This document shows positions 240 through 62,700 of a stretch of DNA of 64,000 nucleotides, in pieces (within the stretch, counting starts at the first letter, position 1; every line of letters starts with the position of its first letter). This DNA is from Amoebophrya sp. A120. Lineage: Eukaryota > Protista > Dinoflagellata. Location: positions 2,724,158-2,788,157 of the forward strand of contig CAJINV010000013.1 of the NCBI GenBank assembly GCA_905178155.1. The letters run 5' to 3'. A program made the position numbers and the translations under genes. The notes beneath the pieces are model-generated. The model had not been told where the DNA came from. It made no database searches and saw only the letters and a list, made by a program, of their open reading frames with translations.

Positions 240-3200
240 GAAACCTGTCGGTAATTCTTGTTTTTCGACACCAGCTCCGTTCTTTCCTTGCCGTATTTCT
301 TCAGTCCCGCAAGAATGTTGTCCAGCCCCACAATGTTGTCTGCCCAGTGCATCGGACCGCCCTTGTAAGGGGGAAAGCCGTACCTGCGCGGGAGGTCGAG
401 GGAAGTTTTTGTTTGGGATCAAGACAGAGAGTCGAAATGGTCGTGTATCGAATCTCTACAACTTATTTTGTTCACGAACACTAATGGGCACCAGTGGACG
501 GGAGAAAAAACGCCATGAAAGAAAAATCTCATAGCGCTCCAATTTCAATATAGTACCCGTAAACGTAGACAATATCGATGTCTGATGGTCGCTGTGCCAT
601 GTTCTCCTCGAGAATCTTGAAGCCCTCGTTTACCAACGGGAAAAACAGTCGCTCGCACACCTCCTTCTCGTCAAACGACCGCGGGGTGACGCCTTTTGAC
701 TTCTGGATTTCGGCGACTTTTGGGGGCAGCTCCGGGTCTAGCTTCAGCTTCTTTCGGGTCTTTGCGTCGTACAGGAAAATACCTTTTCGTTTATTTCAGG
801 AGAAAACGAATGCTGTTGGAAAAAATTACTCAAAAAACAGCAGGGTCAAGAAAAATTTGGCCGCACGAAGAACATTCTAGTAGAAGTGGATGTGGAAACG
901 CCAGTTTTATATATTACCTCTTCCCGTCTTCACGCCCCACCTGTTCTGCTCGCAGAGCCAATCGCACATTTCATACGGCCCAATCGAAACTTTCGTCTCC
1001 ATCTGCATATTCCCCGCTGCCTTGCGCTGCTTCCAAAAGAGTTCCAAGCCGACCAGGTCCGCAAGGGTGAGCGGGCCCATGGGCATGCCAAACTTAAAGG
1101 CCGCGGAATCCACCAAGGACATGTCTGCGCCCTGTTCGACCATCATGCGAGCTTCCGCACCGTAGGGACCTCAAAATGTTGATTTCAACAGGACGCATTC
1201 TTTTTTATTTTTTAACCATCTTCATCTTCTTCTTCAGGAACAATGCAAGTGCTGCATAAACGCTTCGTGAATGAATGTAGGTAGTTGTCAACTGAAGAAA
1301 TCCTTGCAATTTCGTCACATCCAACATACTGAACAACAGAAGTCAAATGCTATTCTCTTTCGCGTTATGAATTTTTTCTAGTCATATTACAGAAGTAGTC
1401 CTCTAACTATACCCATCATCCTGTTTCCGACGAAGCCGTCGCAATTTCCGACTAACACCGCTTTTTTGCCGATCAGCTTGCCCATGGCCATGCAGCTCGC
1501 GAGCGTGACCGCGTCGGCCTTCTTGGTGCGCACGTTTTCCAGGAGCTGCATCACGTTGGCGGGGGAGAAAAAGTGGGTACCCATCACCTTTTCTGGGTAC
1601 GAGTAGGCGGCCGCGATCTCGTCGATGTCCAATCCGGAGGTGTTGGTGCAGACGTATCAAGAGGAAAACTCCCCCCTCCCCATATCGAAAACGAAATTTG
1701 TGGCGCTGTATTTGAGTACACAAATCGACTTGTAATGCTAGAAGGCCAAGAGACGCAGCTGTGGCCTCGTTTGCAGGCAATTCGTCATGCTGCTTCCCAC
1801 TTCCAGCTGCCGCCTGTCTTGCTGAAGCTGCAAGGCTTTCCCACGCCAACCAGCACTACAGTCCGCATCTTTTCCGTTCTAGCATGACAAAGCTGATTCG
1901 TGACCACAAATCTGCATCACAAATTCCTAGTTCGAGTATGGGGTGGGGGGATTTTTCATTTTGATAAGACGAGGCAGTCCTTCTTGCACACCTTGCCGAG
2001 CTCCTTGAAAACCTCCTTCTTCAGCGGCATAATCTCCGGAACCGCCTCGATGATGATGTCTACATCCTTCAAATCCTTGTAGTCCAGCGTCGGGTGCAGC
2101 AGCGACATCAGCTTCTTCGCCTGCTCCGGCTTCATCTTGCCCTTGGCGACCTGTTTTTTTTTGTTTCGTCACTTGCTTCGAGCAACGAGGATTAGCTGAA
2201 CATGGACATCGACATCAAAAAGTTTCATACAAAAGGTTCTTCTTATCTGTGAAGAAACTTTCACGTGGGAGTACGACAAAGACATCAAACCTTCGCCAAA
2301 ATACAGCTGCAAATACGTGAGAAACGAAGCTGCATATGAACAAGTCCGAGGGATGAAGCAGAGAAAAATCCAAACACCTACAGCAAGCGTGCAGCTGAAT
2401 GATGAATGTTGCCATTGCCTCCTTGTTACAAACTACTAACTATACCGTGATGTCGTAATTTTTCTTGATCGTCCCCACGCCGGCGTCGAGCCACTCCTTC
2501 TTTGCGTCCTTGATGACGACGGGGATGTTTTTCTTTAGAAAGTTCATGGCGATGCCCCCGCCCATGAGCCCGGCGCCGATGATCCCCACCTTCTTAATGG
2601 CCGTGGGCTTCGCGGTGTTGCCCTTCACCTTCAACGCCTGGCGCTCCGCGAAGAAAATGTTGCGCAGGGACGCCGACTCAGGGGACATGACCAATTTGCC
2701 GAACTGCTCCATCTCCACCGCGACCTTATGCATTGCAAATATGTCTGGGTCTGGAAACATGTAAACTTCTGATGCGCATTTGAGACCAGAGAAGAATCTG
2801 TCACGCATGGACTGCAAAAGTTGTCCATTTCTTGTCACCAAAAGAGGAACTTGTCATGCGGATTAGGCATCGCCTAACCTGTTCAAAACCTGTGTTGCCA
2901 GGACTTGCATGCCAGACCTTCTGTGCCCTGCACAAGAAGCATCACACTCTTCCAGACCCAGACATATTTGCATTTGATAGACCCCGGCCTCGAACGACGG
3001 GCCGAGGCAGGCCGCCTGGTATCAAAAGTAAAAATGTCTGGGTCTGGAAGAATGCAACTTGTAATGCGTATTTCAGAACACAGAAAAGTCTCTCATGCAT
3101 ACGTAGCAAAAGCTGCCCACTTTCTGTCAGCAAAGGAGGGGACTTGTCATGCGGATTCGGCATTGCGGAACTTCTCGAAACCTGTGATGCTAGCGCTTCC

Positions 3201-4940
3201 ATGCCAGACCTTCTGTGTCATGCAAAAACAGCATGACTCTTCCAGACCCAGACATTTTTACATTTGATACCTGGAAGCACTCGACTATCGCGTCTGGCGC
3301 GATCATGCCGCGAGCGGTCTTGCTCGCGGTCAGCCGGGCCATGTCGAGCCCCCCGGCCTTGGCCATCACCTTATTCCCGATCGGCACCTTCATCTTGGAG
3401 ATCGGCCGGGGAGGCTTGCTCAGCGCAAAGGCCGCAGCGGCGTCCAGGAGGGGCGAACCTGAGATTCATTGTTTTCATTTTTGCGTCGTGCAGGAACTTG
3501 TTTGTTTTCTACGAGTTGTCAGCAAGAAACTTTTATGCATCTACTGTCCCGCACCCGCGTTGAAGAGAGAGGATACAATTATAAACCAGTACAAACCAGC
3601 ACTTCTTCTACCCTTCGGCTCAACTTTATCGACGATCCCGGCTTTGTTGGCTTTCATCATGTTCAGATTCTGCCCTGTCATGACCATCTGCAGGGCGACG
3701 TCGAAGGGAGCCACCCGCGGCAACCTTTGTGTGCCCTGGCCCCCGGGGAGCAGGCCGAGAAGCACCTCTGGGAACCCGATCTGCGCGTTGTCCACGGCGA
3801 CCCGGTAGTGGCAGGCCAGCGCAACTTCGCCGCCGCCGCCCAAAGCTTGGCCGTTGATGGCAGCCACCGTGGTTTTCGGACAGGCGTCCAGGCCGTTGAT
3901 CATGTTGTGCAGGTTCATGATCTGTAATTTTGGGTGTTTGTTGGCATAGATACGAATCTCTCTTCATTTTTATCTAGTGCAAGGAAAATCAGAATCCGGA
4001 GGCTCTTATTCCCTTATGACGTGTGCACAAAACGAATGCGATTCCGACATGCATTTTTTTACTGTTATTGAAGTATCATTTCCGGTGCCGCAATGAACGA
4101 TGCATAAGTAGAGCAAGAAGTACTTCTTACCGCCTGCGGTCCCGCGGTCGCAAATTCCTCTATGGCAAAACCGCCGCAAAAAAGCGCGCCGTGCTATCAA
4201 CTGCAAATACGATGTCTGAGTGTGCAAGATTGAGTGTGTGCCTGGGACGCCCCAAGGACTCTGTATCTGTAGCTGCACTGGTACACGCATGTTCGTTGCG
4301 TAAAAACAATAACAATAATTCCCTCGTCTCTGCAGAAAGAATGAAGCAGCCAGCTCCTGTGCCTCAGATCAACAAGCAACGCTGGGCTGGTCAGCTGTCA
4401 TGCTCGGCCAGGCAATGTGGTGTGTTTGTGCAGCACAGACCAAAACACAACTTTATTCCGGACCCAGACATCATATCTTTGCAGTGGATACCTTCCCCGT
4501 GACAACCACCGCCTTGACTGCCGGGTCCTTGTATCCTGAGTAAAAACGTACCCACACCAGAGCTGTCATGCAGATTTGCAAAGACAGGAAGACTTGTAAT
4601 GCGCATCCCCATGAGAGCCATTTCCAATCGTGTTTTGGAATTTGTGATGCTGTGAACAGGATGAGCAGATGAATCTGCGATGCGGCTGCACTTGCTAACC
4701 TGCACTACACTGTAGAGTGCAACTTGTCATGCGTGACTCACAAAACTCCTAGGTTTGTGTTGCAAAATCCCCATCCTGACTCTGGTGTGGGTACGTTTTT
4801 ACTCAGGATACCTTGGACACCTTCGCCAAATTTTCATTGAAGGACTTGACCAGACCAGACGCAAGGGAATTCACGGGCGGGTTGTCCAGCGTGATGACGG
4901 CCACGCCGTCTGGCCGCACCATGCACTGCGTGGTGGCCAT
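240..4940 (-). CDS. Multifunctional fatty-acid beta-oxidation enzyme (enoyl-CoA hydratase + 3-hydroxyacyl-CoA dehydrogenase; MFP/EHHADH/FadJ-like), multi-exon, C-terminus continues past window start
   Basis: ATG at 4940 ([26 protein letters not shown]). Crotonase motifs [40 protein letters not shown]; Rossmann [13 protein letters not shown]; [40 protein letters not shown]. Interrupted by 6 introners and several GT-AG introns. Confidence 0.95.
1655..1966. mobile_element. Introner family A (312 bp), TSD agacg
   Basis: TIR tatcaagaggaaaactcccccctccccatatcgaa / ttcgagtatggggtggggggatttttcattttgata; agacg at 1650-1654 and 1967-1971; removal restores [11 protein letters not shown]. Confidence 0.93.
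2727..2979. mobile_element. Introner family B (253 bp), TSD gacct/gaccc
   Basis: TIR tatgcattgcaaatatgtctgggtctggaa / ttccagacccagacatatttgcatttgata; removal restores [11 protein letters not shown]. Confidence 0.92.
3020..3269. mobile_element. Introner family B (250 bp), TSD cctgg
   Basis: TIR tatcaaaagtaaaaatgtctgggtctggaag / cttccagacccagacatttttacatttgata; removal restores VECFQ-AACLGP. Confidence 0.93.
4195..4490. mobile_element. Diverged introner family B (296 bp), degenerate TSD cgtgc/ccttc
   Basis: Ends tatcaactgcaaatacgatgtctgag / gacccagacatcatatctttgcagtggata; removal restores VTGK-(H)GALFCGGF. Confidence 0.82.
4532..4810. mobile_element. Introner family C (279 bp), TSD ccttg
   Basis: Perfect 31-bp TIR tatcctgagtaaaaacgtacccacaccagag; removal restores [16 protein letters not shown]. 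Confidence 0.95.
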
Positions 4941-5768
4941 TCTGCTTCGCCGCGACCGAGAAACGTTATCTCAGTTCTCCTCTGACGTTCGTTGGTATTC
5001 AGTACTGATCTATCGGTGCAACAATTCTTTTTCCTTGCAGTTGATTATCGCAATAAATCTGTAGTTGTTATTGTGATGGCAAGCGATATCAAGGCGAATC
5101 TCCGATGTCGGGTAGATCGAAGAAAGAGGTGCAAAAAAAGGAGGAACAAGAAATACGCGAACTTGCTTCCGTACTTTTTCTGCACGAGCTTTGGAGGGTG
5201 ATAGGCTTTGTTTTTTTTTTGGAAAAAACGTCTATCAAAAAGCTGAATTGACTTCTCAGGGACCGACCGGGGTCCTGTGTCTAGTGCCTCAGAAAAACCA
5301 AAATTATATCACTCGTCTTCTACTCAGGCAGCAACCGTACTATTTAATAGTATTAACACCGGCTCCAGGTCACGATCGTTATTCGGAATAGCCTCCTGTA
5401 CTACTGGTAGTGCCGCTCATCTTGCGTCTCTCAAAAAAGAAGAAAAAATCGATGGACCCGAACGGGCCTAAAAAAAGGCCGAAAAAACACCGACTCGGAA
5501 TTTTTATCAGGTAGTGGCATGCTGCAGCACCTATGCCACTTACTTACTCAAAAATCCTACCTCTTCATGCCCTTACTAGTCGCATGGACCGACAGAGGAG
5601 ACGCCAAGCAATCCACCTCTTTTTCAAAAAACAGAGCCGCACCCACAAGCATCCTTCATGACCGACATGGACATTGCCGCAATTTTTACTTCTTTGCGTA
5701 GTGAGTCGAGTAGTATAAACAATTCGCATCGATATATAGTAAGTGCAACTGGAGAACGCGTTCCCGCC

Positions 5769-8042
5769 TCACAATGCGGGCTCCCGTTGACAGCTTGCGG
5801 GCGTCAACCGAACCGCCGTGCTGGTTGCTGAAATAGATACCATGTATATGTGCGTGTGTGTTTTCTCTTTCCAAAAGTCTTGTACAAGTACCATGCATGC
5901 GGGAGCCACCTCCATCTGTAGATTGTGTCGTGTGAACGCGCAGCGTGCTGACGATGGTGAAGCACACGACGGCATCATATGCAATAGCAATCGTAATGTT
6001 ACAGGAGGGATTCTATCAATTTTGGCCATGGTTCATCATGCTTATTCGCCCTGTATATGAATGTAAAGATACACCACACAAATGTTATACTATCAATCTG
6101 ACCGATGAAATTCAGGAACGCAAAAAACAGAATCATGACAAGATTAAATTAAAATTATACGTGGAGAGGATCATGTCACGATGGAGAGGAAGTGACACGC
6201 AGATGCAAATGGATGAAGTCGTCAATTTTTTTTACTACTGGAATCGAATCATATTGACGGTCGTTAGTAGCGTAAGAATTTGAATTGGAAATGGAAGAGT
6301 TGGTATACTAATTTATTAGGGAGGCGAGAAAAGGCTATCGACTGAAAACACTTGTCTACTCCTACCCCCAGATTGAGTTACAAATAGTATTGTAAAATAA
6401 CGCATACAACATACTGCAGTGCATTGCAGAAACATGACTCACTTTGTTTCTCAACAATCGCCCAGCATTTTCGGATCACATCAGCGCCCGTGGTGAATCC
6501 TGCAGCTCATTTTTGTTGTTTTGTGCCGTGCACGCAGTGTGGTCAATTTTTTTTGTACAAAAATGCGACTGTACTCCTTGTGTTATCCTACACGACGCGA
6601 CGTGAGCGTGACGCCACCGACTTTCATTCTCACATCGTTGCCGCCTTGATTTTTTCCTTGATGGCCTGCTTTTCGGCCCGATTTCGGTCATGTAGCTCCT
6701 TCAGGATTTCCTTCAGATTGGCCTTCGGCGCACGGTCAGCGGCTTTTATCCGCTCGATCAGAGGCGCCTCCGGGATCAGGATCTGAGTTAGGTGCATTTT
6801 TACTCTATTTTATTTTTATTCTTTGAGACATGTTGTCCTAGTCCTATACCAGCAGTCATGCTCATGCATGTAGTGTGCGCGACAAAACAAAAACGTAAGC
6901 ATGCCAGCAAGTGCATGACAAACACGACAAAGAGCACCATATATTCATACCTTCCCCATCATAGACCCGTATCGTTTGTTGCTTTCCCGCAAATTCGCTT
7001 TGTCTTCCCGGCAGCGCTTATCCCGATGGGGCAAAGTCCACCAATCACACAAAGAGAGCCGTGATCTCTGCCTGCTTTCATCGATGAACTAGAACTTGAT
7101 GAAGATCATGATCTAGATCATCTAACTATGCATACTAAAATTCAAATTTCGTGAAAGTAATTGCTGAATGCCTAGCGATGAAACCAGGTGCTCATATTTT
7201 ATTGGCTGTTAATATCACGCAATCTTCATGTAGTCGAGGTGCACTTTTCAGTAGGATACGAGTGGAAAGTCTCGGCAAACGCTGCTTTTTTCTTCTCTTC
7301 CCGAAATAACCTGATGGCAATTTTTGAACGAGGATTTCTTTGCTTTGCAAGTACTGGTACTCGCATGAGCAAAAAAAGGGCGAAATCGATTCAAGGAAAG
7401 CAAAAGTGAAACACATATTTTCAATTGCAGGCATATTTCTAACTCTTCTAAGTTGTAAGCATAGTACCTGTTGTCGCGTATGCTTCGCAAGTAAGCAGAC
7501 GTGTTGCAGTGGCTCGGAACAGAGTGGGGCACGTTCGAACTTATGGACATTTTCAACTTCGAAATTCATCTTTTTCCTTGCTTCCGGACCTAAGGACTGA
7601 GTTCTTTGTTCACTCGAACAACATTTGTCATGTTGCGGATGCTGGATTCGTCAGGACAATGACCGTGTTTCCTCGAGCACTAGAGATGTTCTGGGGAGCG
7701 AGATTCATGCAACACAACAAATTTGCGACGATTGAAACTCAAGTCACTGAATGGCACTGCAAGTGTGCAACTCCAGTGAAGACCCGGATGATAAAGCAAA
7801 AGCAGATGAATTTCCTATTGAATTTTTTTCACTGTGGTAAAATTTGGATCGAATTTGTGAAAGCCCCCGTCGTGCCAGGTGCACCAGCCGGTTCCGTGCG
7901 CGTGCGGGATGCACATCCGCCCCATGTGGTCGATGTAGGGAATCAAATTGGAGTTTTCCCCGAGGGGGTACGGTGTGTAGCGCTGCTTCGGCGGAGCGGA
8001 AGTGGCCCGAGCCGTTGAGCTGCCGGAAGCAGGGTGACCCAT
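5769..8042 (-). CDS. Probable multi-exon hypothetical protein (boundaries uncertain)
   Basis: Protein-like exon fragments, e.g. MGHPASGSSTARATSAPPKQRYTPYPLGE... (7815-8042) and ILIPEAPLIERIKAADRAPKANLKEILKELHDRNRAEKQAIKEKIK (about 6635-6783), separated by AT-rich stretches. No family recognised. Confidence 0.4.
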
Positions 8043-9514
8043 GGTGTTGTTTCAAAGGTGAAAAAGTTGTTCTTGAAACTACGTCCTCGCGAAGTAGACG
8101 ATACCGAGGTAGTACTTACTCTAGCTGCCACAGCAGCCTAGAAAAAAATGCGAGTTTCCAAAAGATGAAAACACAAAGAGGGACAAAAAAGTAGGGAGCA
8201 ATACTCACATTGGGCGCAGGAGGGGAGCGCAGACAGAATGTGAATCTGCTGTAGTACCCTGTTGGAATGCAAGAGGTAAAATCAATCACAAGCAACAACC
8301 GGTCAATATCTGCAATTGAGGGGAATGATGCAGACCAGTGCCACATAGATAGTAAGCACGATGCAACGCTCACACGAGCGCTGCTTCACCACAGGTTGTG
8401 TCTCGGCCTGTGTCTGTGCGCCAAGACAGATGTAGAAAAAAAAAAGCCGAAGCCTTATTGTTTCGCTTCCCTTTATCACAGGACCGAAATCAACTGGCAG
8501 ATAAAAACTAGGAGGCTCAGACCTAGGCATACGATATAAAAAAAAAGGCTTCCGGAATACCGAAAGAAATTCGAAATCCTGATGGCGAGAACGAAATTTC
8601 TTTTCTCCCGATGGCATAGAAAAAAGACCGATTCGTCCTAGAGGCACGCTCATGCGGTTGTTGTTCTTCTTTCAGATAAACGAACAAAATGAAAATTGCT
8701 GCAATTGATATTCTCGCAAAACAGGCACAGAAAAACCGATGGAAAAATCACTGTCCATACCGAGATCATTCGATGTTTCATTTACCGACCACACACAGCA
8801 CCAACAGCAGCACTTTCGATTCTCTGTGATGTGAACACGGTTGCATATGATGGAACCAGCTTTCCAGCAACACCTCCACGACGTCAAGAAAAAAAATGAT
8901 AGAAAATTCAAAAAGATTTCTTCGGTTTCACTTTCATATCTGGTTCGGCACCTCTCTCCGCAGGTCGTGAAGAAGCAGGTTTAGCTTCAACACAACTCGG
9001 GAACGGGCATTCGAGGACCTATAATGTTGCCTGAGATGGTACAGAGCAAATACAAATAGAAACAGTGGGATTCCCGAGAAATACAACCCGAAAGGCCCTG
9101 CAACTACTGTCATCTCATCGTACCATTCTTCATTTCATGGTAGTTTTTTATTTTTTCTTATTGGTTTAACAAAAAGTATAAGACTCAGAATTAGTAACTT
9201 GTGGGGAACAAGGATAAAAGAAGAAATGGGAAAATAGAAATACAAAAAAAAAACAATTTGATACAATGAAGAAAAGAAGTGACTCCTCCATCGAAATGCG
9301 GTACGGAAAAGCTAGAGCAAACTGGAAATTGAAGCGACGAGAGAACAAAAGGGAGACGTGCAAAAATGTAAAAAATGCGAATGCCATTAAAGGACATAGC
9401 AGACCGCACAAAAATGCTCTTTCCGGTGCGTTTTTGCACGACGCAATGGCGCTGCACCCGTCACGAATGCATTTTTTACATCGTCTTTACTTTTAGAAAC
9501 TCACGTCGCTGCCG

Positions 9515-11730
9515 TCACAAGTCCTCGCCGTCGCCTTCAGAAACCCCAGTTGCTCCGCCGCCCTTCCGCTGCGGTTTTTTATCCGCGTCCTTTATCCCGC
9601 GTCTTCGCGCCCGCGCGGGCCGTCGGTAGTTGGGTTGTGCCACTCGGTTCGGTATGCTGCTGCCAGATGAACCGCACGCATTATTTCGTGCCGCACTTGC
9701 CTCCTGCTGCTCCTGGTGGGATTTATTTCCTCTACGCATGATTTTCATCTCTGCGGGACGAGGTCGTGGTCTCGACGGCGTTGCATCCAGATAGTATTCT
9801 GCATTCGCATCTTCTGGATTCGTGTCCCTTTTCCGTGCTTCTTCTTCTTCACATGCACGTGCTGACGCTCCATCCCGCAGCTGTGCATAATGCGCAGTCC
9901 CGGAGGTTCTAATTGTGGCATCTCCAGACAAAGACTCAGGAAGTTGTAGAAGTAACCCAGGCCTCGCGGCGCACGTTTCTATTCTGTATGGCGTATTTCG
10001 TTTCGAATCTTCACCAACAATCCGGCTATTATTTCCGACAAACGTCATCTCTTGCGAAGGTTCTACTGGTGGCACAAACACGAAGCTGCTTTCGACGTCC
10101 ACGCTCATAGTTTTCATCATCCGTGGGGATGGATTTTCAGCGCCGCAAGATCCGGAAGTGGATCCACCGCAAGAACCCGGGCTACAATCGACCGAACCGT
10201 GTGTCGGACAAGATTTATCATTTTCCTCTGAGACAACCTCAACGAGCAAGCCCGACAGCGCGCTTCCCTCCGGATAAAAGCTGAAGTGGTGCAGTGGTAG
10301 GTGGTGCTCGGACGAGTGCCGGTGGATGCTCATGCGGTGGTGCCGCCCCGGTTTGGTCAAGGAGGAACCGCCCGCGACGTTACTCGTATAGTACGAGGTG
10401 GAGTCTAAATTCGTGGCCTTATTCTTCGGACCACGTCCGCCCTCCGAGGAGCTGCTGTCGCTGGAGGAGTCCGAGGACGAGGAAGTGTCAGTCCCTGCCT
10501 GCAGTCGTATCGCGCGCGCCTCACCCTCAGCTGTGATGTTGTGGTTGTGGCGGATAAAGATCAATATTTCTAGAAAAAAATCTCATTATTTTCGACAAAC
10601 GAGAAATACAAGAACAGTGCTGAATGAACAAAATATTCTCGGTCTCAGGAGCGGGAGCAACCATGAAAACAATTCGGAAAATAGTACCTATCCTTGGAAT
10701 CGTGGGGGCGTTCGACTTTAGTTGACTCGTTGGCTGTGGCACTGGTACCATGGCGGCAATATCGGGATCGTAATCCGTGGGCCCGAAACTCTTCTCCCCT
10801 GTGTTCATATTGCCAATCAGCGTTTGCACTACGCAGTGTTAATGTTTCTTTGTGTGCAGTCACCATTCGGATAGTATATTCAAAGCAAAAACTTCTATCA
10901 AAAGTATTAACCGGTGATCACTAGTAGCAAAAGCTTCGCTAAAAGAAGAAGGATGCAACTGCATGTAATTCAATCAAGGTTTCCGTACCGAATTTCCGAC
11001 TCCGTTTGGTTCCATCGAAGGCTTCGGAGGCCATTTTGGATCTTTGCTCCTTCTTTTCCTTTTTGGCCTCCTTTTTCTCAATGTACCCCTCCAGCTCGTT
11101 TACGCACAGTTCGTCCGGCTTCCCGTCCTTTTTGTCCTTCTTCTTTTTCTTCTCATCGACACCGGATTCTAGCTTTGACTTTTCCTTCTTCTCCTTTTTG
11201 TCTTTTTTGTCCTTCTTCTTCTTTTTCTTCTTCTCCTTATCCGAGGCGTCGGTGCCAGGAATTTGGGGCGTCGGTGCGACTATCCCGAGGAAAGAAAATA
11301 CTTACCCCCTCTGCAACCCCATAGATGAAGTAGTCAGAGCGGTGCTAGTGGGTTTTGCGTGCTGCTCTCAAATCAACTTACTTATCTTGCAACACGGCGA
11401 GGAAACACCAACCGTGACGCACATACATATCGGGAAGCAAGAACTTGTCATCGATTGGGGTCGTGCCTTAGCTTTTCGCTGTCATACTGAACAAGCAAAG
11501 CGTTTTCGAACGTGCTCGCGACGAAGAATCAATTTTACGCCGGTATGAATCTGCTCTTGCCTTCTGACACACATGACATCAGAGGGATTTGTATGCAAAT
11601 TTCTTTTCAACTTTACGGAGTCGTGGGGGGAGACTTTTTTCTCTTCGATAGCATCATCCTCCGACTCGGAGCCGGACACGGTCTCGCGCGAGTCCGGCTC
11701 GTCGTAAATCTCTGTCCGGTTGTCCGTCAT
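9515..11730 (-). CDS. Multi-exon low-complexity hypothetical protein with Lys/Glu-rich segment
   Basis: ATG at 11730 (MTDNRTEIYDEPDS...), K/D/E-rich exon at about 11030-11280, 349-codon terminal open frame 9515-10564. Confidence 0.5.
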
Positions 11731-13405
11731 GGCTCCACTGCCGGTTCTTGGCGCTGGTGGTCAGCAGGTGCACTAGAACTAGCTCCACTTTGAGTTCTAC
11801 AACAGCCCAAACGATTTTTACGAAAATCCGCCACCGCCGTGAGAACTAGTCATTACGAGCCGGACCACAGACAAAAACATCGGAAGGAGCAGGTACGAAG
11901 AGCATGCGAAGAGGACAATTAATCTTAACTTTTGCTTTTCAATGTAGAAGTTGTTGACTAAGTCGCAAAATATCGATCAGCGCAGCGATAGTTATACGGC
12001 GCTTACGTACTGGCGCTTTGACTTTTCTACGTGCTGTTCGCTCCTGCGCAGCTAGTACAAAACATGCACCTCTTACATCGTGCTCCTGAAGTTGGGAGCG
12101 TCACCTACCACGTAATCAAATCAGGATTGACAAGGGCATCAGTCATAGTCTTATTGGTGAGAAATCTAATGTAAAAATCATAAGTAGGAGGGTGAAGCAT
12201 TGAATGAGGTCCTGCGAGAGTTTGAAGTCAAGAGGGAAATCAATGACATGATGTCTACTTATTATCTTCATGACAGCAGAAGGATGCGGCAACACAGGCG
12301 CACGAAAGTGACGAAAATGTACGAGAAGCCACATTCAAGAATGGCATGTACGATGAAATGGAAATGTCGAGATACAGAGTTTTTTCGCATTCGAATTTTT
12401 TGACCGAATCGAAAACCATATTTTCTCTTCGGTTCTTGTAATATGGTTGGCAAACTTTTCTACTTCACACAAGCACCGACACAATTGCGCGAACGAAAGG
12501 ACGGAACCGATTCGAGTGCCTGTATTTTCCGTTCGAATGAATCATCAATCGGGATGCACGAACCGACTATGATTGTCTTGCACAAAGTCGAAAATCTATT
12601 TTCATTCTTACAATGACCATTTCTCCGCACCGAAACTTGCTCCAAGGGCCAGGATAAACAAAATTTTCCTTTATTTCACATTCACTTTTCTATCATGCCC
12701 GGAAGGAGCAAATTTCGCCGGAGCGCTCTCCCATAGATGAATCGAATAGGTTGCCGCTCTGTGAAAACAATGATGAACAGCTGCACAAAAAGGAACTTCT
12801 GCGAGCCGAGGGCACACCATAAACTCTCAAGCTCAGCAGTTGGTCAGGTCATAGAAGGCTCTCAATCACATCAAACTTTGTGAAAATATCACGGAATCCA
12901 CTGAAAGGCAAAGCGCAGGACTTCTTCGACTTGGTAATATGTAGTTGCTTTCTTGCCTCTATCAATCTTTAGGCCACCTCACCTCAGGTACAATGCGCTG
13001 ACAACTAAATTTTAATCATGACACAAACTCTTACTTTCAGCGAATATTTTTTTTCAGGATCATTGAGATGGTGCTGGAGTTTCAGTGTCTAGTACACGAG
13101 CATACAGAAGAAGACAACGCACGTTATATATTTGACATCAATGCAGACTCTTTTCCACGACTGAAGCTGCTCGTCCTCTAGTAGCTGTTTGCAAGTGAAT
13201 TTCCTCTTGTAATAATTCTTTAAGATGCTGCTCAACATACAAAAAAATCGTTCTTTCATAGATATCTTTCTGCGCAAAAAGTAAAAAAATAGGTACTAGA
13301 GATATGGACAATGAAATCGGTCTCGGTGTAGTGTTAGAGTTAGACTAGTAGTAGTAGTAGTGATTCCCAGCAGGGGGAGAGAAGGGGACGCCAACTCACA
13401 CCTCA

Positions 13406-21778: not shown

Positions 21779-22254
21779 AAACTCTGTTGCTACACCTCCA
21801 TGATGACCATGTGATGCCCCGACGCCGTCACCTACTTCGTGATGATCATCTTGGTGTAGTTGTGATTTGAGGCCACTGTGGGTAGTTGTTGAGCGTATTA
21901 CCGATGTTGTTGAGAATTAGACAAAATAAAAGTGTAAATTGTACAACAAGAAAAAGGTTTGTAGAACGGGACTGCCACTGAAAGACGATCGATGTATACG
22001 AAATGCGAACAAGTGAAAGTGAGGAAAAAAAAGGCAAAGCAATATACTGAAAGTCCTTTTGTTGATGGAGGAAGGAATGGGAACAACAAAAAAAAATGCA
22101 ACACTATGCAAAAAATAGGAGCGAGAAAGATCGAGAAAAAAAAAACACGTTTGGGTTCGGCTGTCCTCTCACGCCAAATTTGCCTTTTCCCCGTCGTGCG
22201 CGTCGACTTTGGAACTTTTTCCATTAGGATCGGTCAGCTTCCGTCTCATTGCTC

Positions 22255-49237: not shown

Positions 49238-52200
49238 TCACAGTTCTTCTCTTTCCTTCGGCGTCCGCCACACATTCAAGGCCATGTCTCTTCTCGCAGA
49301 GGCCATGGGCTGCTTTTCCCCAGCCTGCTTGGCAAATTGCCGGTTGGATTTCTTGTAGGGCTTTTCGAGGAAGCTCCTCTCCAGCTGGATCGCCATGCTG
49401 AAACGCGATTCCTGCGTGCCGATGAAAAAGTCCGCCCGGTATCAAGAAGAAAAATCCCCCCGCGCCATATCAAAACGGAAATCTGTGATGCTGATTTGCA
49501 GTCGCAAATCAGCTTTGTGATGCTAGAAGGGAAAAGATGCGGACTGTAGTGCTGGGTGGCGTGGGGAAGCCTTGCATCTTCAGCATGACAGAAAGCAACT
49601 GGAAGTGGGAAACAGCATGACAAATTTCCTGCAAACGAGGCCACGACTGCGGCTCTTGGCCTTCTAGCATTACGAGTCGATTTGTGTACTTACTCAAATA
49701 CCGCATCAGAAATTTCGGTGTCGATATGGGGTGGGGGGATTTTTCCATTTGATACCCGGCTCGCAATCCACATCTCGACGATGCTCTGCTTGCCCGGGTG
49801 CTGCAGCGTTTCCCGGTGCGCGTCCGAGGTTTCCTGGTAGTCGAAAAACACCAGATCGGACGCGGTTTTCTTGGTTTTTTTGCTTGTTTTTGTTCCACCG
49901 GCGTCCGCGTCGCTATCCTCTTCGTCCAGTTTGTCTAACACGTCCTCACCGTTGAAGAGCAGCATGGCCTCCTCCTTCTCCGCCTTGGTGGCGTCGGTCG
50001 CGATGAAGATCTTCTGCAACTTCGTCTCCTTCTGCAGCGCCTTCAGCTGCGTCACGATCGAATCCCAGTCAGCTGTGGTCGAGGCCCGGGACTTGACGAA
50101 ATCTGACCGACGACAATGCGCGGCAATAAACTTGGTACCTGTACTAGTGTCGTAGATTTTTGAAGTACAGCTGTTGTTGCATCAATATTTCTTCGTGCAC
50201 CAAAGAAAAAGATAACAGCATGATCAGCTCATCACATGAACATGAACATGATCATGAAGTCGCATGTCTCTATACCTCCAAACTTTTCCCGCATAAACTC
50301 CTCCCCGATGGTTCGCAGATCTTTGTGAAAATGGACCGACTCCCGTAAGCCAATGCCGTCCAAGGCGGAGATGTCCGGAATCGCCAAGTAGTCGTAGTGT
50401 TTGATCAGCACGGTCGAAACGTCCTTGTTGCCATCGTCGAGCATGTCGACAATGCCCTGCGCGAACGGCGTTTTGATGATCCCACACTTCACATTCGTCG
50501 TCACGACCCCCTTGTCGCAATACCCCGCATAGACGACCCGTTTTTCGTCTTTCTCCTCACTATTTTCCACGTCTTGCACAACTCCGGTTATCAGAGAGAA
50601 GTAGTAGAACACCTACTCCCTCGCCCTTCTTCACGATAATTTTTACAGGAAATGCAAAGCAAGCGAAACAAGGACAAGATAGAAAGCCAAGAGTGATACA
50701 ATAAATCTGCTCTCGCATGAAAAGAAACGAAGAGCACAGACGCACGGATAGATTGTAGAAGCGCCATCCACCTGCAGCTCTGGCGCCGGGCGCCTCATGC
50801 AACAAACATGGCCACAGCACTCCTGAGCTCCTTGAGCAGCACATCAAGTGTACTAGGCACGTCGACTATGTTCGTGCCTCTTCACGATTTTTCTCGAGTT
50901 GACGACGGAGGGGAAGATCTTCCTGTGCACTCGGATCATACCGCCCTTTGCCTTGTCACAATCGGTGTAGTCGTTCTGCGACCACCCGACAAAGTCGTCC
51001 CCGGGGTTTTTCCCGGGTGAAATCATCCCGTACCTTTGCTCAACGTCGTAGAAAATGACGCGGTCGATTTTGTTGGAATTGTTCAGCGCTTGCTGGGACA
51101 GCTCGTGATACTCGATCACGGAGAATGGCAGCTGCTTCAACATGTCAATGTCGAACAGTTCGCCCCAGGGTAGTTTCTGCAGGCGGTTGGGCAAGTCGTA
51201 GTTCCGCCAGTGCGCCAGCCGGCACCAGGGGGGCAGCACAATCCCCCACAGGACGCAATCCGGGGTCTTCCCGAGGGAACCCGACTCCCCGCACCGGTCT
51301 TCGATACGAAAGTTTAGCATCGCCACCGCGTGCGCGACGCGGGGAAACACTTCCCGCTGGAGGTTAAACCCCTCGCCATACTTCGTGTCATACAAGAGCC
51401 AGCGCCGGTTCTTGCTGGTGGTAGATGTTGAGTCCGTTTCTGCTGCATCAGTACTATCATCTGCAGCGCTGCCGCTATCGTGGAGAATTACCTTGTTCGT
51501 TCCCAAGGTGTCCGTCTCCTTCGCCTTTGGGTCTTTCTGCTTGGTCGGCGGATTTTTCAGCGCGTCTAAAACGTGGTCCAGCCCCGCTTGGTCGTCGGCC
51601 AACACGGCGGGCTCTTTCTTCTTCTTTTTCTTGCCTTCTTTTCCAGCTTTCGACGCTATTGCTGTAGGTTTTTTCGTCTTTCCCGAAGTAGAAGATGTCG
51701 CGGTAGAAGTGGTACTTGTGCTGGTACTAGTACTTCTTTCTGGTTTATCTTTCCCGGGTATCTCCTTTGTGCACTTGGATACGCACTGCGCCATCGGTCT
51801 GCGCATGGCTTTGTCGTAGCACATACAACTAGGCCCAACCTCCGGTGGCTCGGGCGTATCCGTGCACGCCGCGCCGCCACGCGACATTTGGAAGTTGCCC
51901 TTGCCCATAACTCCCTCGCACCAGGTCTGGCACGTGTTCAAGTCGGCATTATCGGGACACGGGTGAATCAACCCAGTTGTCGAATCAACAGCGGGGGCGA
52001 CGGCCGGCGCAGAAGGAGTACTAGCAGAGGCCACTTTCTTTTTCATCTCTGCGGCTTTTTTCTTGTCGAGGTTTTTTTCGGAATTCGAAGTTTTCTTGGT
52101 TCCCGCCATTTTCTTGTGCAGAGCCTGTTCGTCGTCGCCACTATCGTCGGTGTCTAGGTCGTCTAAGTCATCGTCATCTTCTGCGGTGGTCTCCGCTTCG

Positions 52201-55200
52201 GCGTCGATTTTCATCTTCGCTGCTTTTGTTTTACTTTTGATGTTCCCTTTCGTTGTCTTTGTACTGCTCTCTACAACTTTTTCGTTCTGCAATTTCTTCT
52301 CTACAAACTTGACGAACTCGTCCTGTTTCCGGCCCCCCTCGAACTTCTCGATTATCCTGAGTAAAAACGTCCCCACACCAGAGTTAAGCTGGGAAATCTG
52401 CTAGACAAATCTATCAGTTTTTGCTGTTGCGCATGACAAATTTGGCCTCGCAGTGTAATCCTGTTTAGCTTGTTTAGCAGCATCACAGATCTAGCACATC
52501 ATGCTGATTCTAGCATCACAAATCCAAAAACACGACTAGAGACTGCTTCTCATGGGTCTCCGCATGAGAAACATGCTCAGCGTGCAGATTTGCATTACAA
52601 CTCTGGGGTGGGGACGTTTTTACAAATGATATCGATATCCTTCGCTTTATCCGCCGGGTACCAGTAGATGGTCGGGTACCCACTTATGCTCGGCATCACC
52701 TTCTATCAACTGTAAAAATGTCTGGGTCTGGAAGAATTCGAATTTGTGATGCGAAGTCTACATCATGAGAAAATCTGTCATGCATGGCTAGCAAAAGGCC
52801 CCACTTCTTGTTTCCGAGAGCCGGGATTTGTCATGCGGATTAGGCATTGGGATATCTGCTCAAAATCTGTGATGCTAGAGCTTGTATTCCAGACGATTTG
52901 GGTCATGCAAAATCTGCATGACAGATTTCGCATTCTTCCAGACCCAGACATTTTTGCAGTTGATACCTTCCGTGCGTCCGTTTGCGTCGCGTCCATCTTG
53001 GCGATCAGGACGCTCTCGTTCTTCTCGAAGTGCTTCGCCACCTTCTTCCACACCGGCGCCAGGGCTTTGCAGTGTCCGCACCAGGGCGCGTAAAACTCGA
53101 CCAGGAGGGCCTGCTGCCGGTTCTCCACGATAGCTTCCCAGTTGGACCCCGTCAGCGTGACCACCACGTCCTTCTCGGCTTTTAGTGTCTTGCTCCCCCA
53201 GGCCTTCGCGAACTCCTGAATCTCGCTCTTCGTGATCTTCTTCAGGTTCGGGGGTTTCTTGCCGCCTTTCGTGGACGGGTCGTTTGCCTTGCCAAAATGG
53301 TACACCTGGGTGGGGGTAGGGGAGGGGTAGTTAGTACTACACGAGGTTTATCTTTTTACCCGCAACCTTTACTTGCAACATGTTGGAAAGAATTCTGATC
53401 AGCCTAAGAACGCTAACGAGCTGCAAGCAGTTTACACACTTATACGTAAACACCTTATCTTCGTCTTCGGTCTCACCGAATTCCCAGATAAAAAACGCTG
53501 GCGCCTGGGTATCACTCGAAATGTGCTTCACAAAGTCGTCCCCCCATGTGCCGGTTTTTGCCGCCACCCACTTTAGTTGTCTTTGGGCAGTGTCTTCAGA
53601 CGTGTTCTTTGCTTTGTCCTTTTCCAAAGTCCAGTCCTGCGCCGCGCGGTAAGCTTGCTCGAAAAGGTGCACATCGGACGCTGCGTCGCCGTACACAACG
53701 GCGAGCGCCTTCCCGGGCGCAGTGTCGTGCAGGAAGAGCGACTCGTTCTCCTGCGCGGCCGTAATCAGGTACTTTCCGGCCTGGTTGACCTTGATCCAGG
53801 AGAGAAGGTTTTTACCGCTTGTTCCTTCTTCCGCGATCTCAGGACTTGTAGTGTCGCGGTACACGACGCCAGAATCAAGAATTACATCTGTACGTTTAAA
53901 ATATCCCGCTTTTTCGGATATCACCGCAGTGCAAAGGTACGTCTACGTTGATCTTGATCATGTTCTTGCTATATACGAAAATAGTCAGAAACAAAAAGCA
54001 GGCGAACAATGTTGCACAACAGAAGTAGTTGAAGTACAAAATGAACACGGGCGATCAAGTAGGTGCTGGCGTCATTACTAGTATAAATATGGAGGAGGCA
54101 ATGGCACCCTGATAGATCAAATTGTACCGTTCCGGAGCAGATACGTCCCGACTTTTCCCTTCGCCAATTTCAGCGCAAAGTCGTCCCACTTTTTCCAATC
54201 CGGCTTTTTCTTTATCTGCTTTACCAGCGACTTCAGCAGCTGCGAATCCTTTTCCACATACACAACCGGAAAGTCTTGGTCCTTCGCATTCGCAACCGGT
54301 CGTGGGTTCAACACAAACCCCGCGCCGGCCAGCTCCTGAATCCCTGCATCGCCGGCCACATCCGGCTCGATCTCGGTGCCTTATGCATTGCAAATATGTC
54401 TGGGTCTGGAAGGTTGGAACTTGTAATGCAGGTTTTCCATGACCCATGAGGTCTGGAATGCCGAACCTAGCATGGCAGAGTCTGTGAGGTCTCTGTCATG
54501 CCTCTCCTGCATGAGAAACTCCCTCCCAACTTGGTTGAAAGTGGACAACTTTTGGCACTCACGCAACCCAGATTTTTGCATGATTCGGATTTAGCATGAC
54601 AAGTTCGCATTCCTCCAGACCCAGACATATTTGCAATGCATATACCTACGTGCAGAACCACGAAGGGTTTCTTCATCAGTTTCTCGACCACCGCGGATGC
54701 GGACACCTCGGCGGCGTCAAATTGCTGGAAAAACGGTTTCTCATTTTCGTACTTCCCGGTCACGTATTTTTTGAAGGAAGCCGCGTCCCGTTTTCCGTTG
54801 TACCGCACGTAGTAGTTCTGGTTTCGGTAGAAAAGGAGCAATGTGGGAAACCCGGTCACCGCAAACTTTCCCGCCAGGTCCTTCTCCACCGTGGCGTCAG
54901 CTTTGGCAATTTTGATGCTACCTTCCTCGCCCGTTTCTTCGCCCCAGGAAACTACCTCGGTCGCAAGCTTGTCCCAGTCCGGAATCAGCTTTTTACAGTG
55001 CCCACACCAAGGAGCGTAGAACTTTACGAAGGTAAGAGTGCTGGACTCGAGCGTGTCATCGAAATCAGCGGACGTTAGCTCGAGAACAGCAGCGGTGGTC
55101 GAGACAACCAGAGAATTACTTTTGGTGAGACTTGATCCGCAAAAGGACCACTTTACCACGCAAGAAAAAAGCATTCTTGCGCTGAACCCTCGCGGCCAAC

Positions 55201-55237: not shown

Positions 55238-55796
55238 GTTATTTGTTTTTGTTCCCCTTCCGTGCCGCGACTTTACCGCTTCCCTTCGCAGTCGAAGTTC
55301 GAATGACAGCGCGAACTTATTGCGATCGAAGAGAAAACTTGCCTCTTCGTTGTTACCAGGAAACCAGCCTCATCTTCAGTTTTACTTCATATGACGATCT
55401 CACAACCGCACATTCTAACTTCCTGTTCCTGCTCCGGCTACAACTTCATACATAAATAAAGAGTCCCATGGCACAACTCCACGAGTGGCATAATTTCATC
55501 ATCATTTCACATTCTTTCATTATAGAAGGCCGCATGTTCATTTGCCATGAAAAAGGTACATCGAGCGTTTTGGCCGCAGGTGGTGTGCATGATCGAACGA
55601 GGATCTTGCAAGCATCGAACCGATGAAGACATCATGTTCACGGAAAGCATCAAATAGAAAACCAGGACCGAGTTGTCACTTTGCGAAGCACCAAGAACTA
55701 AAAGAAATACAGCACACAGCATGAAAACTCTTGGAAAAAAGAAACAGATCGATGACCCATTTCATTTGATACTTGTTCGGTTTTGAAGATCTAAAA

Positions 55797-55954
55797 GTTG
55801 AAAGGGCACACGGCACGACTGCAACGCAAGCTGCTCTATCGTGCAACGAATTTTATCACAGTGATGATTTTACTGCTCTACAGCGGGAAGTGAAGTACCG
55901 CGACCGCCGAGCAAGTGCCGTTTTTTTTCCTTTCCTACAACTGCAAGGTCATGA
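55797..55954. repeat. Intergenic dispersed repeat of about 160 bp, copy 1
   Basis: Aligns by eye with 58830-58994 (shared blocks tgcaacgaattttat, gctctacagc, gtgaagtaccgcgaccgccg, aactgcaag.tcatga). Confidence 0.85.
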
Positions 55955-58829: not shown

Positions 58830-58994
58830 GTTGAAGGGGCACACCACACGACTGCGCCGCAAGCGCAAGCTGTTTCAGTTTCTGCAACGAATTTTATAAC
58901 AGTGCCGATTTTACCGCTCTACAGCAGAAGGTGAAGTACCGCGACCGCCGCGTAAGCGCCGCTTTTTTCTTTTCCAAAAACTGCAAGATCATGA
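58830..58994. repeat. Intergenic dispersed repeat of about 165 bp, copy 2
   Basis: Same-orientation match to 55797-55954. Confidence 0.85.
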
Positions 58995-59748
58995 AACTTG
59001 TCTTCATTTTCACAGCCCTCCCTGCTTCCAAAAAGTCCACAGGCTCAGGAGAAAGATGTTGTTTTTTACGCCACCAGGGTGCTCTTTCTCTTCTCTTCGC
59101 ACAGATTCAAGGAGTGATATGCTAATAGATTACAGGCACTGTAAATCATGCTGTGAAGGTGGAGCAAGACGTGGAGATAGTGTACACATATTTTTTTTTC
59201 TTGAAGATGAGGTTTCGGAAACAATAAACGAATAAACGCGTGATCAAACTTGTACAGTGGATGATAATTCTTGTTCAAATTTTGCAGTAAATCACCACAA
59301 GCCCGCCCTCAAAGCGCTAGCGTGCGTATCAGATCCAAATCCAATCGTAACAATGATAAATTTTGCGTAAATACAATTACAAACAAGTCTCAAATAACAA
59401 TGACAATACAGTGTAAAATTTTCATGTTCAAATTCAAACAAAGTGGTTTCTATTAAAACCTTATAGACTTTTCAACACAAATCCGTCGCGCAATTCTTGT
59501 ACTTGTTGTTCTCATCACACTACACGTCGCACGAAAGAATGCTCAAATTGCAAACTTCGCTACGGCTACAGCATGAGTGATGAGCTTAATGACGATATTA
59601 TTGAAACATAAGCAGATAGCTCCTAACTGTTCCACATTTTCATTTACTTTAGGTAAGTTGACAATAACCCACCATGTGTTCACGCTCCTTGGTTACTGCT
59701 GCACGTTCGTATGAACCAAAACCAGTCGATTGCAGAGCGACCGTCAAC

Positions 59749-62700
59749 TTAGTTTTCCTTGTACTGTAGGTTCCACTTGCCCAACCGGCCCAACGCGGAG
59801 GCCTTCAGCTCCCCGACCGAGACGTTGGCCGCCCCCAGTTTCGCGGCGGACCCGCTCCCGGAGCCCTTCTGCAGACCGTGGCCCTTTCCGCCGAGCGCGA
59901 CCAACCGGTCCATTAACGGGAAGTATCAAAATGAAAAATCCCCCCACCCCATACTCAACCTAGAAATTTGTGATGCAGATTTGTGGTCACAAATCAGCTT
60001 CGTCATGCTAGAAGGGAAAAGATGCGGACTGTAGTGCTGGTTGGCGTGGGAAAGCCTTGCATCTTCAGCATGACAGGGGGCAGCTGGAAGTGGGAAACAG
60101 CATGACAAATTGCCTGCAAACGAGGCCACAGCTGGGTCTCTTGGCCTTCTAGCATTACAAGTCGATTTGTGTACTCAAATACAGCATCACAAATTTCGTT
60201 TTCGATATGGGGAGGGGGGATTTTTCCTTTTGATAGGAAGTGGTCGTTGTTTTCCGCGTGCGCGACCGCCGTGTACTGCTTCGCGTCGTACGCGTTCAGG
60301 TCCGCGTATCCCACAGAAAAAAGCTGGCAGGGCATATAATTTGTAATGCAAAAATAAATACACAGAAAGACTTGCCATGGGCGGCCCCATAGCATGCAGC
60401 TTCGGATATGCAATACAGATTTTCTTGTGTATCTGTATTTATTTTCGCATTACAAATATGACCTGCCAGCTTTTTTCTTTGGGATACCGCGCCGAGCTCG
60501 AGCAGCAGCATGCACACCTCACTGTGGCCGCCGATCGCGGCGAAGTGCAGCGGCGTGCGCTTCAGGCGGTCCAGGGAGTTCACGTCCGCACCCCACTCGA
60601 CCAGGCGACACACACCGTCCACATCGTTGTTCGCGGTGGCGATGTGCATGGCCGCGCACCCGTTGCTATCGGACGCGGTGACGGGCACCCCGTACATGTG
60701 CAGCAGTTCCATGATGTCGTAGCGTTTGTGCTTGGTCGCGATGGTGAAGGGGATGTCGCCGGTCTTCGCGTTTTTCAGGTTCAGGTTCGCCCCCCGGCGG
60801 TAGCAGAGCTTCGCCAGCGCGAGGTTGCCCGTCAAACAAGCGTGCTCCAGCAGGGTTTTCTCGCTCTCAATGTCGCGGGCGTCGATGGAGGTGGTGTCGA
60901 GTAACTGTTATCAAAAGGAAAAATCCCCCCTCCCCATATCGAAATGGAAATCTGTGATGCAGGATTTGAGGTACCAAATCGACTTGTCATGCTAGAAGGC
61001 CAAGAGCCGCAGTCGTGGTCTCGTTTGCAGGCAATTTGTCATGCTGTTTCCCACTCTCAGCTGCCTCCTATCATGCTGAAGATGCAAGGCTCCCCCACGC
61101 CACCCAGCACTACAGTCCGCATCTTTTCCCGTGTAGCATGACAAAGCTGATTTGTGACCTCAAATACAGCATCACAAATTTCGTTTTCGATATGGGGAGG
61201 GGGGATTTTTCCTTTCGATAACTGCTCCAGTTTGTTCAGCAGAATGGTGCCGTTTTTCGTCAAAATCTGCCGAATGTTGAAGGTTGTGATCTTCTCCCGC
61301 GGCTGCTGCATCACGCCCCCGCGATAGTGACCCGCCGCAGCTCCGTGATGTTGTCCACCATGGGCCATGGACCCAGCCGCTCCTTTGCTGCCGGCGTCGA
61401 GGGTCGTGCCGGCTTTGCCCGTTTGATGCATCGACGTGGCGGATTTGTTGCCCGCCTGGTCCCCCGCGCCGGCTTCCGCGTGCTCCTCGGAGGCGGCAAG
61501 CGCTTTGGCGTCGCCCGCGGCGGTTTTCTCTTCCCGCTTCTTCCCGCCTTGCTCCAACAGCTCCTGCGACTTCAACTGATCCTCACTGGGCAGGTTGATG
61601 GCCTGGTCCGCGGTCAGCGTGGCCGGCTTTTTCTTGTCGTTGATGTCGTCTTCGGAAATGAGCAGGATCTTGGACAGTGCGTTCTGCATCTTCTTCACCG
61701 TGTTCACGTCCATCGCGCCCCACTTCACCTGGTCCGGCTTCGTGGATTTCACTTGTGGGTGCCCCGTGTCGTGCAGAAACTTCCACAGCGCCTTGGACAA
61801 GGCCAGCAGAATCACCGGCGCCGGGCCGGGCAGGGTGGCCAGTTTCGGCCAGTTCTTCAGGTCGGCGGAGGTGGGTTGCACGTCGCCATCAATCGCTTGC
61901 AGAATACCATCGTTATCCTGCAAATGCAAGATCGCGAGCGGGGTCAAGCTGTGTGTAGGAGTTGTTTTTTCATGAGGGATTTTTTCAGGGTGCAGTTGCT
62001 ATTTTTTCATGAATATACAAGGTTGTCAACATCGATCTGCAAGCCATATGTTATACTCATGACTCAATCTGCGGGGTGAGGTTTCACACAGAAGTATACA
62101 GAGTTCTATCGTACGTCATGCTCTTCAAGTTCAAAATACATGACTTTATTATACTTTTTGTTGTTCTGTCGTTCGATGATGGCGGTCATGAAGTAACCGA
62201 TGGACCTTAGCGAGAACAGGTTCGCTTCCAGGGAGATGTAACTGAGACTCGGGCACGTGGTGATGATCTGGCAGATATCAAATGCAAAAATGTCTGGGTC
62301 TGGAAAAATGCAAGATTTGTCATGCTTAACAGACTGCGCAGCTAAATGCAAGATTTGTCATGCATATTTCTCATGACCCATGATGCCTGTAATGCATGAC
62401 CTAGCATCGCAAACATTCAAAGGGCTTCCTGATGCACGTTCCGCATGAGAAATGCCCTGTCAGTGCAGCACAAACGGCGCCCCTCTTGCTGGTCATGCAA
62501 TACAAAACTTTTTAGAGTCCAAAAACAGCATGACAAGTTGCAATCTTCCAGACCCAGACATTTTTGCAATTGATAGCAGATGTCCGCACAGGAGTCCATG
62601 GTCAGCTGATTTTTCGACAAGTCGAGCGTGTGCAAACTCGGGCAATCGGTGAGGACTTGCGACAAGGTGGAAAACCCAATATCGGAGATGGCGGACCCCC

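Follow-up and report, generated by a model that had tools for sequence, protein, structure and literature searches.

A helically phased motif in the introner families of Amoebophrya sp. A120 is probably a protein-binding site on duplex DNA

A 64,000-nt stretch of the genome of the dinoflagellate Amoebophrya sp. A120 (GenBank assembly GCA_905178155.1, contig CAJINV010000013.1, positions 2,724,158 to 2,788,157 of the forward strand; from here: the window) contains several families of introners, mobile introns that begin with TAT and end with ATA. We report that a motif with the core TGTVATGC is strongly enriched within these elements and that its copies are spaced in register with the DNA helix. 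The motif is probably a duplex-DNA binding site for one protein common to all TAT…ATA families, which would aid their copying.

To find the elements of the window, TAT…ATA stretches were required to have inverted repeats and to be flanked by a direct repeat of 5 bp. This search gave 16 candidates, of which the 14 strong ones, intact and totaling 3,879 bp, constitute families A–E. For comparison, metagenome contigs were scanned with the inverted repeat of family B, which matched at least 154 loci of assembly JACKZZ01, a sister genome; the 154 loci listed comprise 604,216 bases after overlap masking, with a few duplicate stretches remaining, so that some copies were perhaps counted twice. All counts rest on the window and the 154 loci listed, not on a whole genome. 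Together these sequences yielded 363 intact elements, 349 of them (86,365 bp) from the JACKZZ01 loci, which form 16 families with at least two copies plus 10 singletons; family B is over-represented (175 of 363 elements) owing to the query used. The median lengths of the families range from 109 to 322 bp. In the terminal inverted repeats (TIRs) of the 14 window elements 24–30 of 30 positions are paired, and the 5-bp target-site duplications (TSDs) are perfect in 309 of the 363 elements, the search having allowed up to one mismatch. Depth in the DNA run was hundreds to thousands of times higher over the elements than over their flanks, corresponding to many copies. The JACKZZ01 locus L037 is the orthologue of window positions 240–12570 (about 89% identity) and lacks the elements starting at 1655 and 4532. 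Because one copy of each 5-bp repeat is retained at these empty sites, the elements are recognized as insertions with a 5-bp target duplication.

On both strands of the window, 60 exact TGTVATGC sites were counted, compared with a mean of 6.12 and a maximum of 13 in 100 shuffles. The 14 intact elements hold 51 of them (13.2/kb), between 2 and 5 each, whereas the dinucleotide-shuffled elements, serving as a composition-matched background, had a mean of 1.0 and at most 4 sites in 100 shuffles. Of the remaining sites, one is located in the element cut by the start of the window, and 8 fall within the 59,882 bp that are left (0.13/kb). In the sister loci, the 349 elements contain 1,086 exact sites (12.6/kb; mean of 24.5 and maximum of 32 in 20 shuffles), compared with 0.30/kb outside. 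These densities correspond to an enrichment of 100-fold in the window and 42-fold in the sister loci. A first-pass annotation of the window, made by eye, had proposed that the octamer recurs in all five families, is much rarer elsewhere and should exceed a composition-matched background; the counts bear this out, and the examples it quoted were recovered at 1731, at 4564, 4595 and 4643, at 47652, 47734 and 47767, and at 60342 and 60447.

The octamer is real, but too narrow a description. A matrix built from 82 sites, which were present in the consensus sequences of all 16 multi-copy families, extends over about AAAYYTGTVWTGCW, with an AAATT run located about 5–6 bp from TGC. The core is almost fixed at six letters, and T occupies position 4 in just 13 of 1,099 sites. 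At least one motif site was found in 362 of the 363 elements and at least two in 361; elements carry 2–8 sites. Of all octamers, TGTCATGC and TGTGATGC rank among those present in the most families (14 and 11 of 16, respectively). Motif sites are missing from all four of the inspected inverted-repeat elements whose ends are of another type (L057, L069, L042 and one nested in L016). At L034:1760–2120, TCTGTAATGCGGATT units build up a fold-back array of the motif in which the inverted spacing is again 17 bp and TAT ends are not recognized.

A spacing periodicity, which the first-pass annotation had suggested to look for, was found. Same-facing sites 31–33 bp apart form 24 pairs in 14 of the 16 families, compared with a mean of 2.6 and a maximum of 10 in 5,000 random placements; these direct pairs sit at three helical turns, almost never at one or two. 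Opposite-facing pairs are phased at a period of 10.5 bp (R 0.51, phase 5.0; R 0.10 at 11.0 bp), a value reached by none of 2,000 permutations that kept the 32-bp blocks, and with 10 clan representatives R was 0.73; sites of opposite direction are thereby shifted by half a helical turn. Moreover, all 23 inward-facing first sites start 32–34, 42–47 or 56–57 bp from the tip of the element, at a distance of three, four or five turns (p 0.0005; p 0.002 with the 10 representatives). Since the phasing matches the pitch of B-DNA and is tied to the tip, we infer that the sites are recognized as duplex DNA, and this geometry is the main ground for our interpretation. The earlier suggestion of a binding site shared between the families, for a transposase or for a factor marking the introns for excision, thus appears sound as far as the shared protein site is concerned, with the geometry pointing to DNA as the substrate.

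All families share the TAT…ATA ends, the 5-bp target duplication and a run of A at positions 11–14. TAT is found in 32 of 32 consensus ends, as imposed by the search; the A residues, present in 24, 26, 30 and 27 of the 32 ends, were not imposed. The element ends read TATS. Positions 15–30 of the inverted repeat vary among families and are devoid of the motif, and only the tip variant TATGCATTGC scores as a site. After masking of the motif and the tips, 7 of 120 pairs of consensus sequences exceed a z of 4 and the other 113 show no similarity above this value; among families A–E, D–A reaches 3.8, C–A 3.7 and all others at most 2.1. Some modules are common to different families and tip variants are common to up to 5 clusters. 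The order and orientation of the sites vary among families, but the spacing holds. The families had been described as otherwise unrelated, which is adequate for most interiors but not for the ends, the duplication, the A-run and some modules. Judged from these comparisons, a single system of mosaic descent describes them best.

In the trees of nine families, the rate of change of the core letters of the motif along internal branches is 0.28 of that of the interior. Among copies differing by less than 5% from their nearest neighbor, this ratio is 0.86 (16/984 vs 59/3,109), higher than in older comparisons (p 0.018). If selection acts during copying, the constraint is expected to relax on terminal branches and almost to vanish among the youngest copies, as seen here. 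Within direct pairs, the two variable letters agree between partners less often than by chance (0.21 vs 0.30). Because the core is constrained and pair partners differ beyond chance, descent alone does not explain the motif.

In the reading that we favor, a dimeric or multi-domain protein would bind the sites along a single face of the helix and help in assembling or bending the paired-end complex by which the TA ends are cut. The better its array, the more a copy would be copied, and the motif would be kept while drift affects the spacers and that part of the inverted repeat which is specific to a family. This protein could be a transposase or a host DNA-binding protein exploited by the elements. 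We consider the two about equally likely: a host protein is favored by inverted repeats that differ from family to family and by the existence of paired sites outside elements, a transposition complex by the phasing relative to the tip. If it is a transposase, the 5-bp duplication suggests an integrase-like enzyme.

Several observations weigh against a protein that acts on the elements during copying. On terminal branches the core letters still change at only 0.44 of the interior rate (p 3e-6), a ratio that stays below 1, and in three elements common to both strains the core differs at 4 of 78 positions compared with 49 of 395 other positions (p 0.08). The number of sites is unrelated to how large a family is (rho 0.30, p 0.29). 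No motif site is present in L036:2387–2652, a TAT-type element whose inverted repeat matches at 20/22 positions; as it is well preserved, the motif appears to be an aid and not a strict need. Beyond the 32-bp class, the phasing of same-facing pairs is not significant (p 0.06), the period measured from the tip fits anywhere between 10.5 and 12, and the 5-bp offset expected for outward-facing first sites is not seen in the 9 of this kind. A Pfam scan of 99 of the 108 long reading frames gave no match to a transposase or integrase family. Sites also exist outside the elements: in AT-rich non-element DNA the exact motif occurs at 0.59/kb, about 4-fold over the expected 0.137, and 14 of 49 same-facing pairs in non-element DNA are 31–34 bp apart (p 7e-10). 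Several of these outside pairs lie in TIR-less GT-AG introns, in both orientations, which argues against a purely element-related role. All four non-element sites between window positions 5300 and 8500 are identical in L037, where 26–49% of the neighboring 14-mers are unchanged; the product of the local rates for these four sites is about 0.03. The hints of conservation in outside sites and in common elements keep a host protein in play. About 5 of 19 outside pairs sit in decayed elements: profile searches gave long element matches for this number, partly driven by the motif itself, and in a comparison with the spacers of elements 1 of the 19 was clearly above shuffles.

The relation of the motif to splicing was addressed with RNA-type contigs from the runs X3, X5 and X6 of one sample; their RNA status is a guess, yet canonical introns are also skipped in them. 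In these contigs, 11 window elements are skipped at exactly their length plus 5 nt, whereas the DNA run X1 had none of the three joints checked there (elements 1655, 2727 and 3020). The removal of 4532–4810 and 4195–4490 was deduced from contig coordinates, which leave 95 nt between the pieces, as predicted. Matches to the raw RNA runs X9 and X10, from another strain, are restricted to parts of B and E elements at 52704, 54557–54606, 60371–60418 and 62274, indicating that related families exist in that strain. All genes examined between window positions 240 and 63300 are on the minus strand; co-oriented gene blocks have been described for Amoebophrya. A coding model assigned the strand for 261 of the 363 elements, with 10 of 10 window calls right and 20 of 20 neighbors in agreement in the strict set. 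Families insert in both directions (B 68 vs 52, C 10 vs 9), and families A, B and C are removed from the RNA contigs in both orientations. On the mRNA strand, UGUNWUGC occurs at 678 sites and its complement at 633, without bias, and copies with all sites facing one way are split 12 to 14. The element 50589–50940, which has no site, is skipped as well, so that in this single case excision did not need the motif. An excision mark read on RNA, as the first-pass annotation would have allowed, is not supported by these results. Pairing of inverted sites into hairpins was likewise rejected: inverted neighbors are complementary at their variable letters at 0.34 and 0.29, compared with 0.30 by chance.

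A GT-AG intron is possible in any register for only 2 of 42 elements, and a single site was counted over six TIR-less introns of the window. The donors of host introns read GTATA or GTAAG, with GTATA in 5 of 6 introns looked at (among them 1170–1412, 2151–2445, 47214–47455, 50139–50275 and 61949–62154). As GTATA matches an element start of the form G|TAT, the TAT tip may act as a relaxed donor; the base before the element is G in only 14 of 42 cases. Left and right ends of one element mismatch at 19–59% at positions 4–8 and at 2–3% at positions 11–13 (363 elements); immediately at the splice junction, pairing is therefore dispensable. Splicing seems to rest on the TAT end, as a mimic of the host donor, together with terminal pairing, and not on the motif. 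In addition, 363 nt at window positions 46552–46914, with GTATC…CC on the gene strand and weak sites about 50 bp inside each end, are skipped in RNA; this stretch may be the remnant of an element of great age whose 3′ end is non-canonical.

The main rival to a protein that aids copying is a host chromatin protein that, bound to the motif on DNA, would flag the element so that it is removed co-transcriptionally, replacing the missing U1 step. Binding at the DNA level would also be orientation-free and helically phased, paired sites exist in TIR-less introns, conservation between the strains is hinted at, GT-AG is rare in the elements, and no U1 small nuclear RNA (snRNA) is reported in the consulted part of PMC7789003. 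However, the RNA contigs that skip the neighbors of 50589–50940 also skip this site-less element, the six TIR-less introns counted in the window are almost free of sites, and the youngest copies lose sites near the interior rate; we consider this rival unlikely, if still the most serious one. Similarly doubtful is the wider proposal that a host sequence-specific DNA-binding protein reads the phased pairs and that the array was captured by tens of thousands of mobile introns both for mobilization and for a chromatin marking that permits RNA removal without U1, which would make it a duplex-DNA intron-definition signal.

Less probable again is that the motif is a DNA-shape signal, an A/T run with GC half a turn later, for bending or for the positioning of nucleosomes or histone-like proteins. 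The AAATT run near TGC and the 10.5-bp phasing would suit it, but six near-invariant core letters and the exclusion of T at position 4 would not, and pairs at three turns, almost never one or two, are better suited to a protein footprint. The sites could also be functionless relics of one ancestral element made of 32-bp repeats, as the few similar consensus pairs, the common modules and the widespread tip variants suggest. This is improbable and largely refuted by the constraint on the core; moreover, pair partners differ at their variable letters beyond chance, order and orientation vary although spacing holds, and most masked consensus sequences are dissimilar. The least credible reading is a motif read on RNA, either by a strand-specific splicing factor or as a hairpin with its complement. 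Inverted neighbors 15–17 bp apart could form small stem-loops and the elements fold end to end; however, the even strand split, the chance-level complementarity, the removal of the one-sided family C in both directions and a phasing of 10.5 instead of 11 largely refute it.

The window elements match the published introners of Amoebophrya sp. A120 in sequence features. These were described with an inverted repeat of TAT, seven variable letters and an A-run, a length of ~240 nt, non-canonical splice ends and short direct repeats of 3–5 nt, and the consulted part of that work reports no transposase (Farhat et al. 2021, PMC7789003). Family lengths of about 106, 149, 209, 234, 260, 278, 305 and 320 are found in the 58 A120 rows of a later compilation, in which the family fam38 has integrase-like homology and is annotated as '5-bp TSD, TA/TA termini' (Gozashti et al. 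2025, PMC12130899). The TAT plus variable letters plus A-run ends, the family lengths and the GT-AG-free removal are common to both sets, but the duplication is uniformly 5 bp here. An internal motif or phasing is not described in the text available from PMC7789003, PMC12130899, PMC11282704 and PMC12787238; it could still appear in figures S19–S25 of PMC7789003, in file 14 of PMC12130899 or in subscription papers. Literature searches, including a full-text search with the 8-mer, gave no report of the motif among the matches listed. The motif array is a previously unremarked feature of known introners.

Subterminal repeats of miniature inverted-repeat transposable elements and DNA transposons (Emigrant/Lemi1; also mariner, Sleeping Beauty, pogo, CACTA and hAT) mediate cooperative binding of the transposase (PMC1636448). 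As in Emigrant, several short conserved repeats are located inside the ends in both orientations and their arrangement matters. The Emigrant repeat copies half of the element's own inverted repeat, whereas the motif described here does not, is common to families with different inverted-repeat cores, is distributed over the whole element and is phased at three turns. Ginger transposons have TGTNR ends and mostly 4-bp duplications, and TDD-4 and TDD-5 make 5-bp duplications (PMC2836005). The window elements resemble these integrase-type transposons in their TIRs and, for TDD, in the 5-bp duplication, but have TATS instead of TGTNR ends, and no enzyme was seen among them. Fis, IHF and HMGB1 act at recombination enhancers, helically phased sites of host proteins that help to assemble a recombination complex. 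The known enhancers of this kind serve one element or invertase, whereas here one type of array would serve many families that are also introns.

A cognate autonomous element or transposase was not found in 0.6 Mb of the ~115-Mb genome. The one long element, L021:505–1608, spans 1,104 bp from TAT to ATA; its left arm is D-like, and its GC-rich insert of repeats contains no recognizable enzyme. Three inverted-repeat patterns gave no match to viral contigs. The paired-motif pattern matched 32 viral contigs once each and was dismissed as chance, as the four richest are short tandem repeats with unrelated spacing; the matches in L159 and L170 are tandem repeats inside reading frames. Other mobile or enzyme-coding sequences were noticed on the way. 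A 2,835-aa frame with a reverse transcriptase domain at window positions 13406–21916 (minus strand) is missing from L037, has two exact sites, which is chance level, and is likely a retroelement without long terminal repeats. At L016:1600–2130, a B element contains a nested Mutator-like element, which has a G-run and a C-run as its ends, an apparent duplication of 9 bp and no motif. C5 cytosine methyltransferase domains occur in two frames at L018:2635–6090, and an 86-bp repeat without motif or TAT ends is present at 55842–55927 and 58883–58968 (87% identical).

The elements of the window and a lone site are compiled in Table 1. The B element at 3020–3269 and L037:10001–10264 have the same position and duplication, but differ by ~18% in the interior and have different left tips, while the neighboring element 2727 differs by only ~3%; gene conversion or repeated insertion is possible.

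Table 1. Elements and selected motif sites of the window (+ and − give the orientation of a site; numbers of skipped nt refer to the RNA contigs)
Positions	Strand	Feature	Motif sites	Further observations
1–238		A-like element, right part, cut by window edge	93−, 145−, 177−	Absent from orthologous L037 locus
1655–1966		Family A element	1731+, 1783+, 1815+, 1882−, 1914−	AGACG duplication; 317 nt skipped; L037 empty site with one AGACG
2727–2979		Family B element	2768+, 2799+, 2852+, 2891+, 2907−, 2939−	Site-like tip 2730; 258 nt skipped; also in L037
3020–3269		Family B element	3060+, 3091+, 3145+, 3183+, 3216+	255 nt skipped
4195–4490		Old decayed B-like element	One exact site, 4396+	301-nt removal inferred from RNA contig coordinates
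4532–4810		Family C element	Six same-facing sites; pairs 4564/4595, 4643/4676, 4725/4756 (31–33 bp)	CCTTG duplication; L037 empty site; removal inferred
6913–6920	−	Lone exact site in TIR-less intron		Unchanged in sister strain
34926–35178		Family B element	34959+, 35006−, 35045−, 35098−, 35129−	
47610–47920		Family D element	47652+, 47700−, 47734+, 47767+, 47871−	316 nt skipped
49440–49754		Family A element, reverse of 1655	49484+, 49516+, 49583−, 49615−, 49703−	320 nt skipped
50589–50940		Old TAT…ATA element, decayed inverted repeat	No site of at least 7 bits	357 nt skipped (control)
52353–52631		Family C element, reverse of 4532	Six sites, all − strand	284 nt skipped
52704–52965		Family B element	52745+, 52776+, 52829+, 52868+, 52916−	267 nt skipped
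54382–54642		Family B element	54422+, 54470−, 54494+, 54509−, 54563−, 54594−	RNA contig piece ends at 54643
59924–60235		Family A element	32-bp pairs 59969/60001, 60068/60100, 60152/60184	No GT-AG in any register; 317 nt skipped
60307–60486		Family E element	60342+, 60410−, 60447−	185 nt skipped
60909–61220		Family A element	60953+, 60985+, 61037+, 61136−, 61169−	317 nt skipped
62276–62575		Family B element	62318+, 62356+, 62388+, 62404−, 62443−, 62465−, 62497−, 62528−	305 nt skipped

Two questions are left by the consulted part of PMC7789003: what moves the introners of Amoebophrya sp. A120, and how GT-AG-free introns are removed without U1. For the former, the 14-bp motif with its fixed 32-bp pairing is a direct bait for the protein, and the array provides a signature for locating the autonomous element as well as old relics. 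A motif common to all sampled families is also a reason to treat the many published families as one mobilization system. For the latter, our results move the question of splicing from the motif to the TAT end and terminal pairing.

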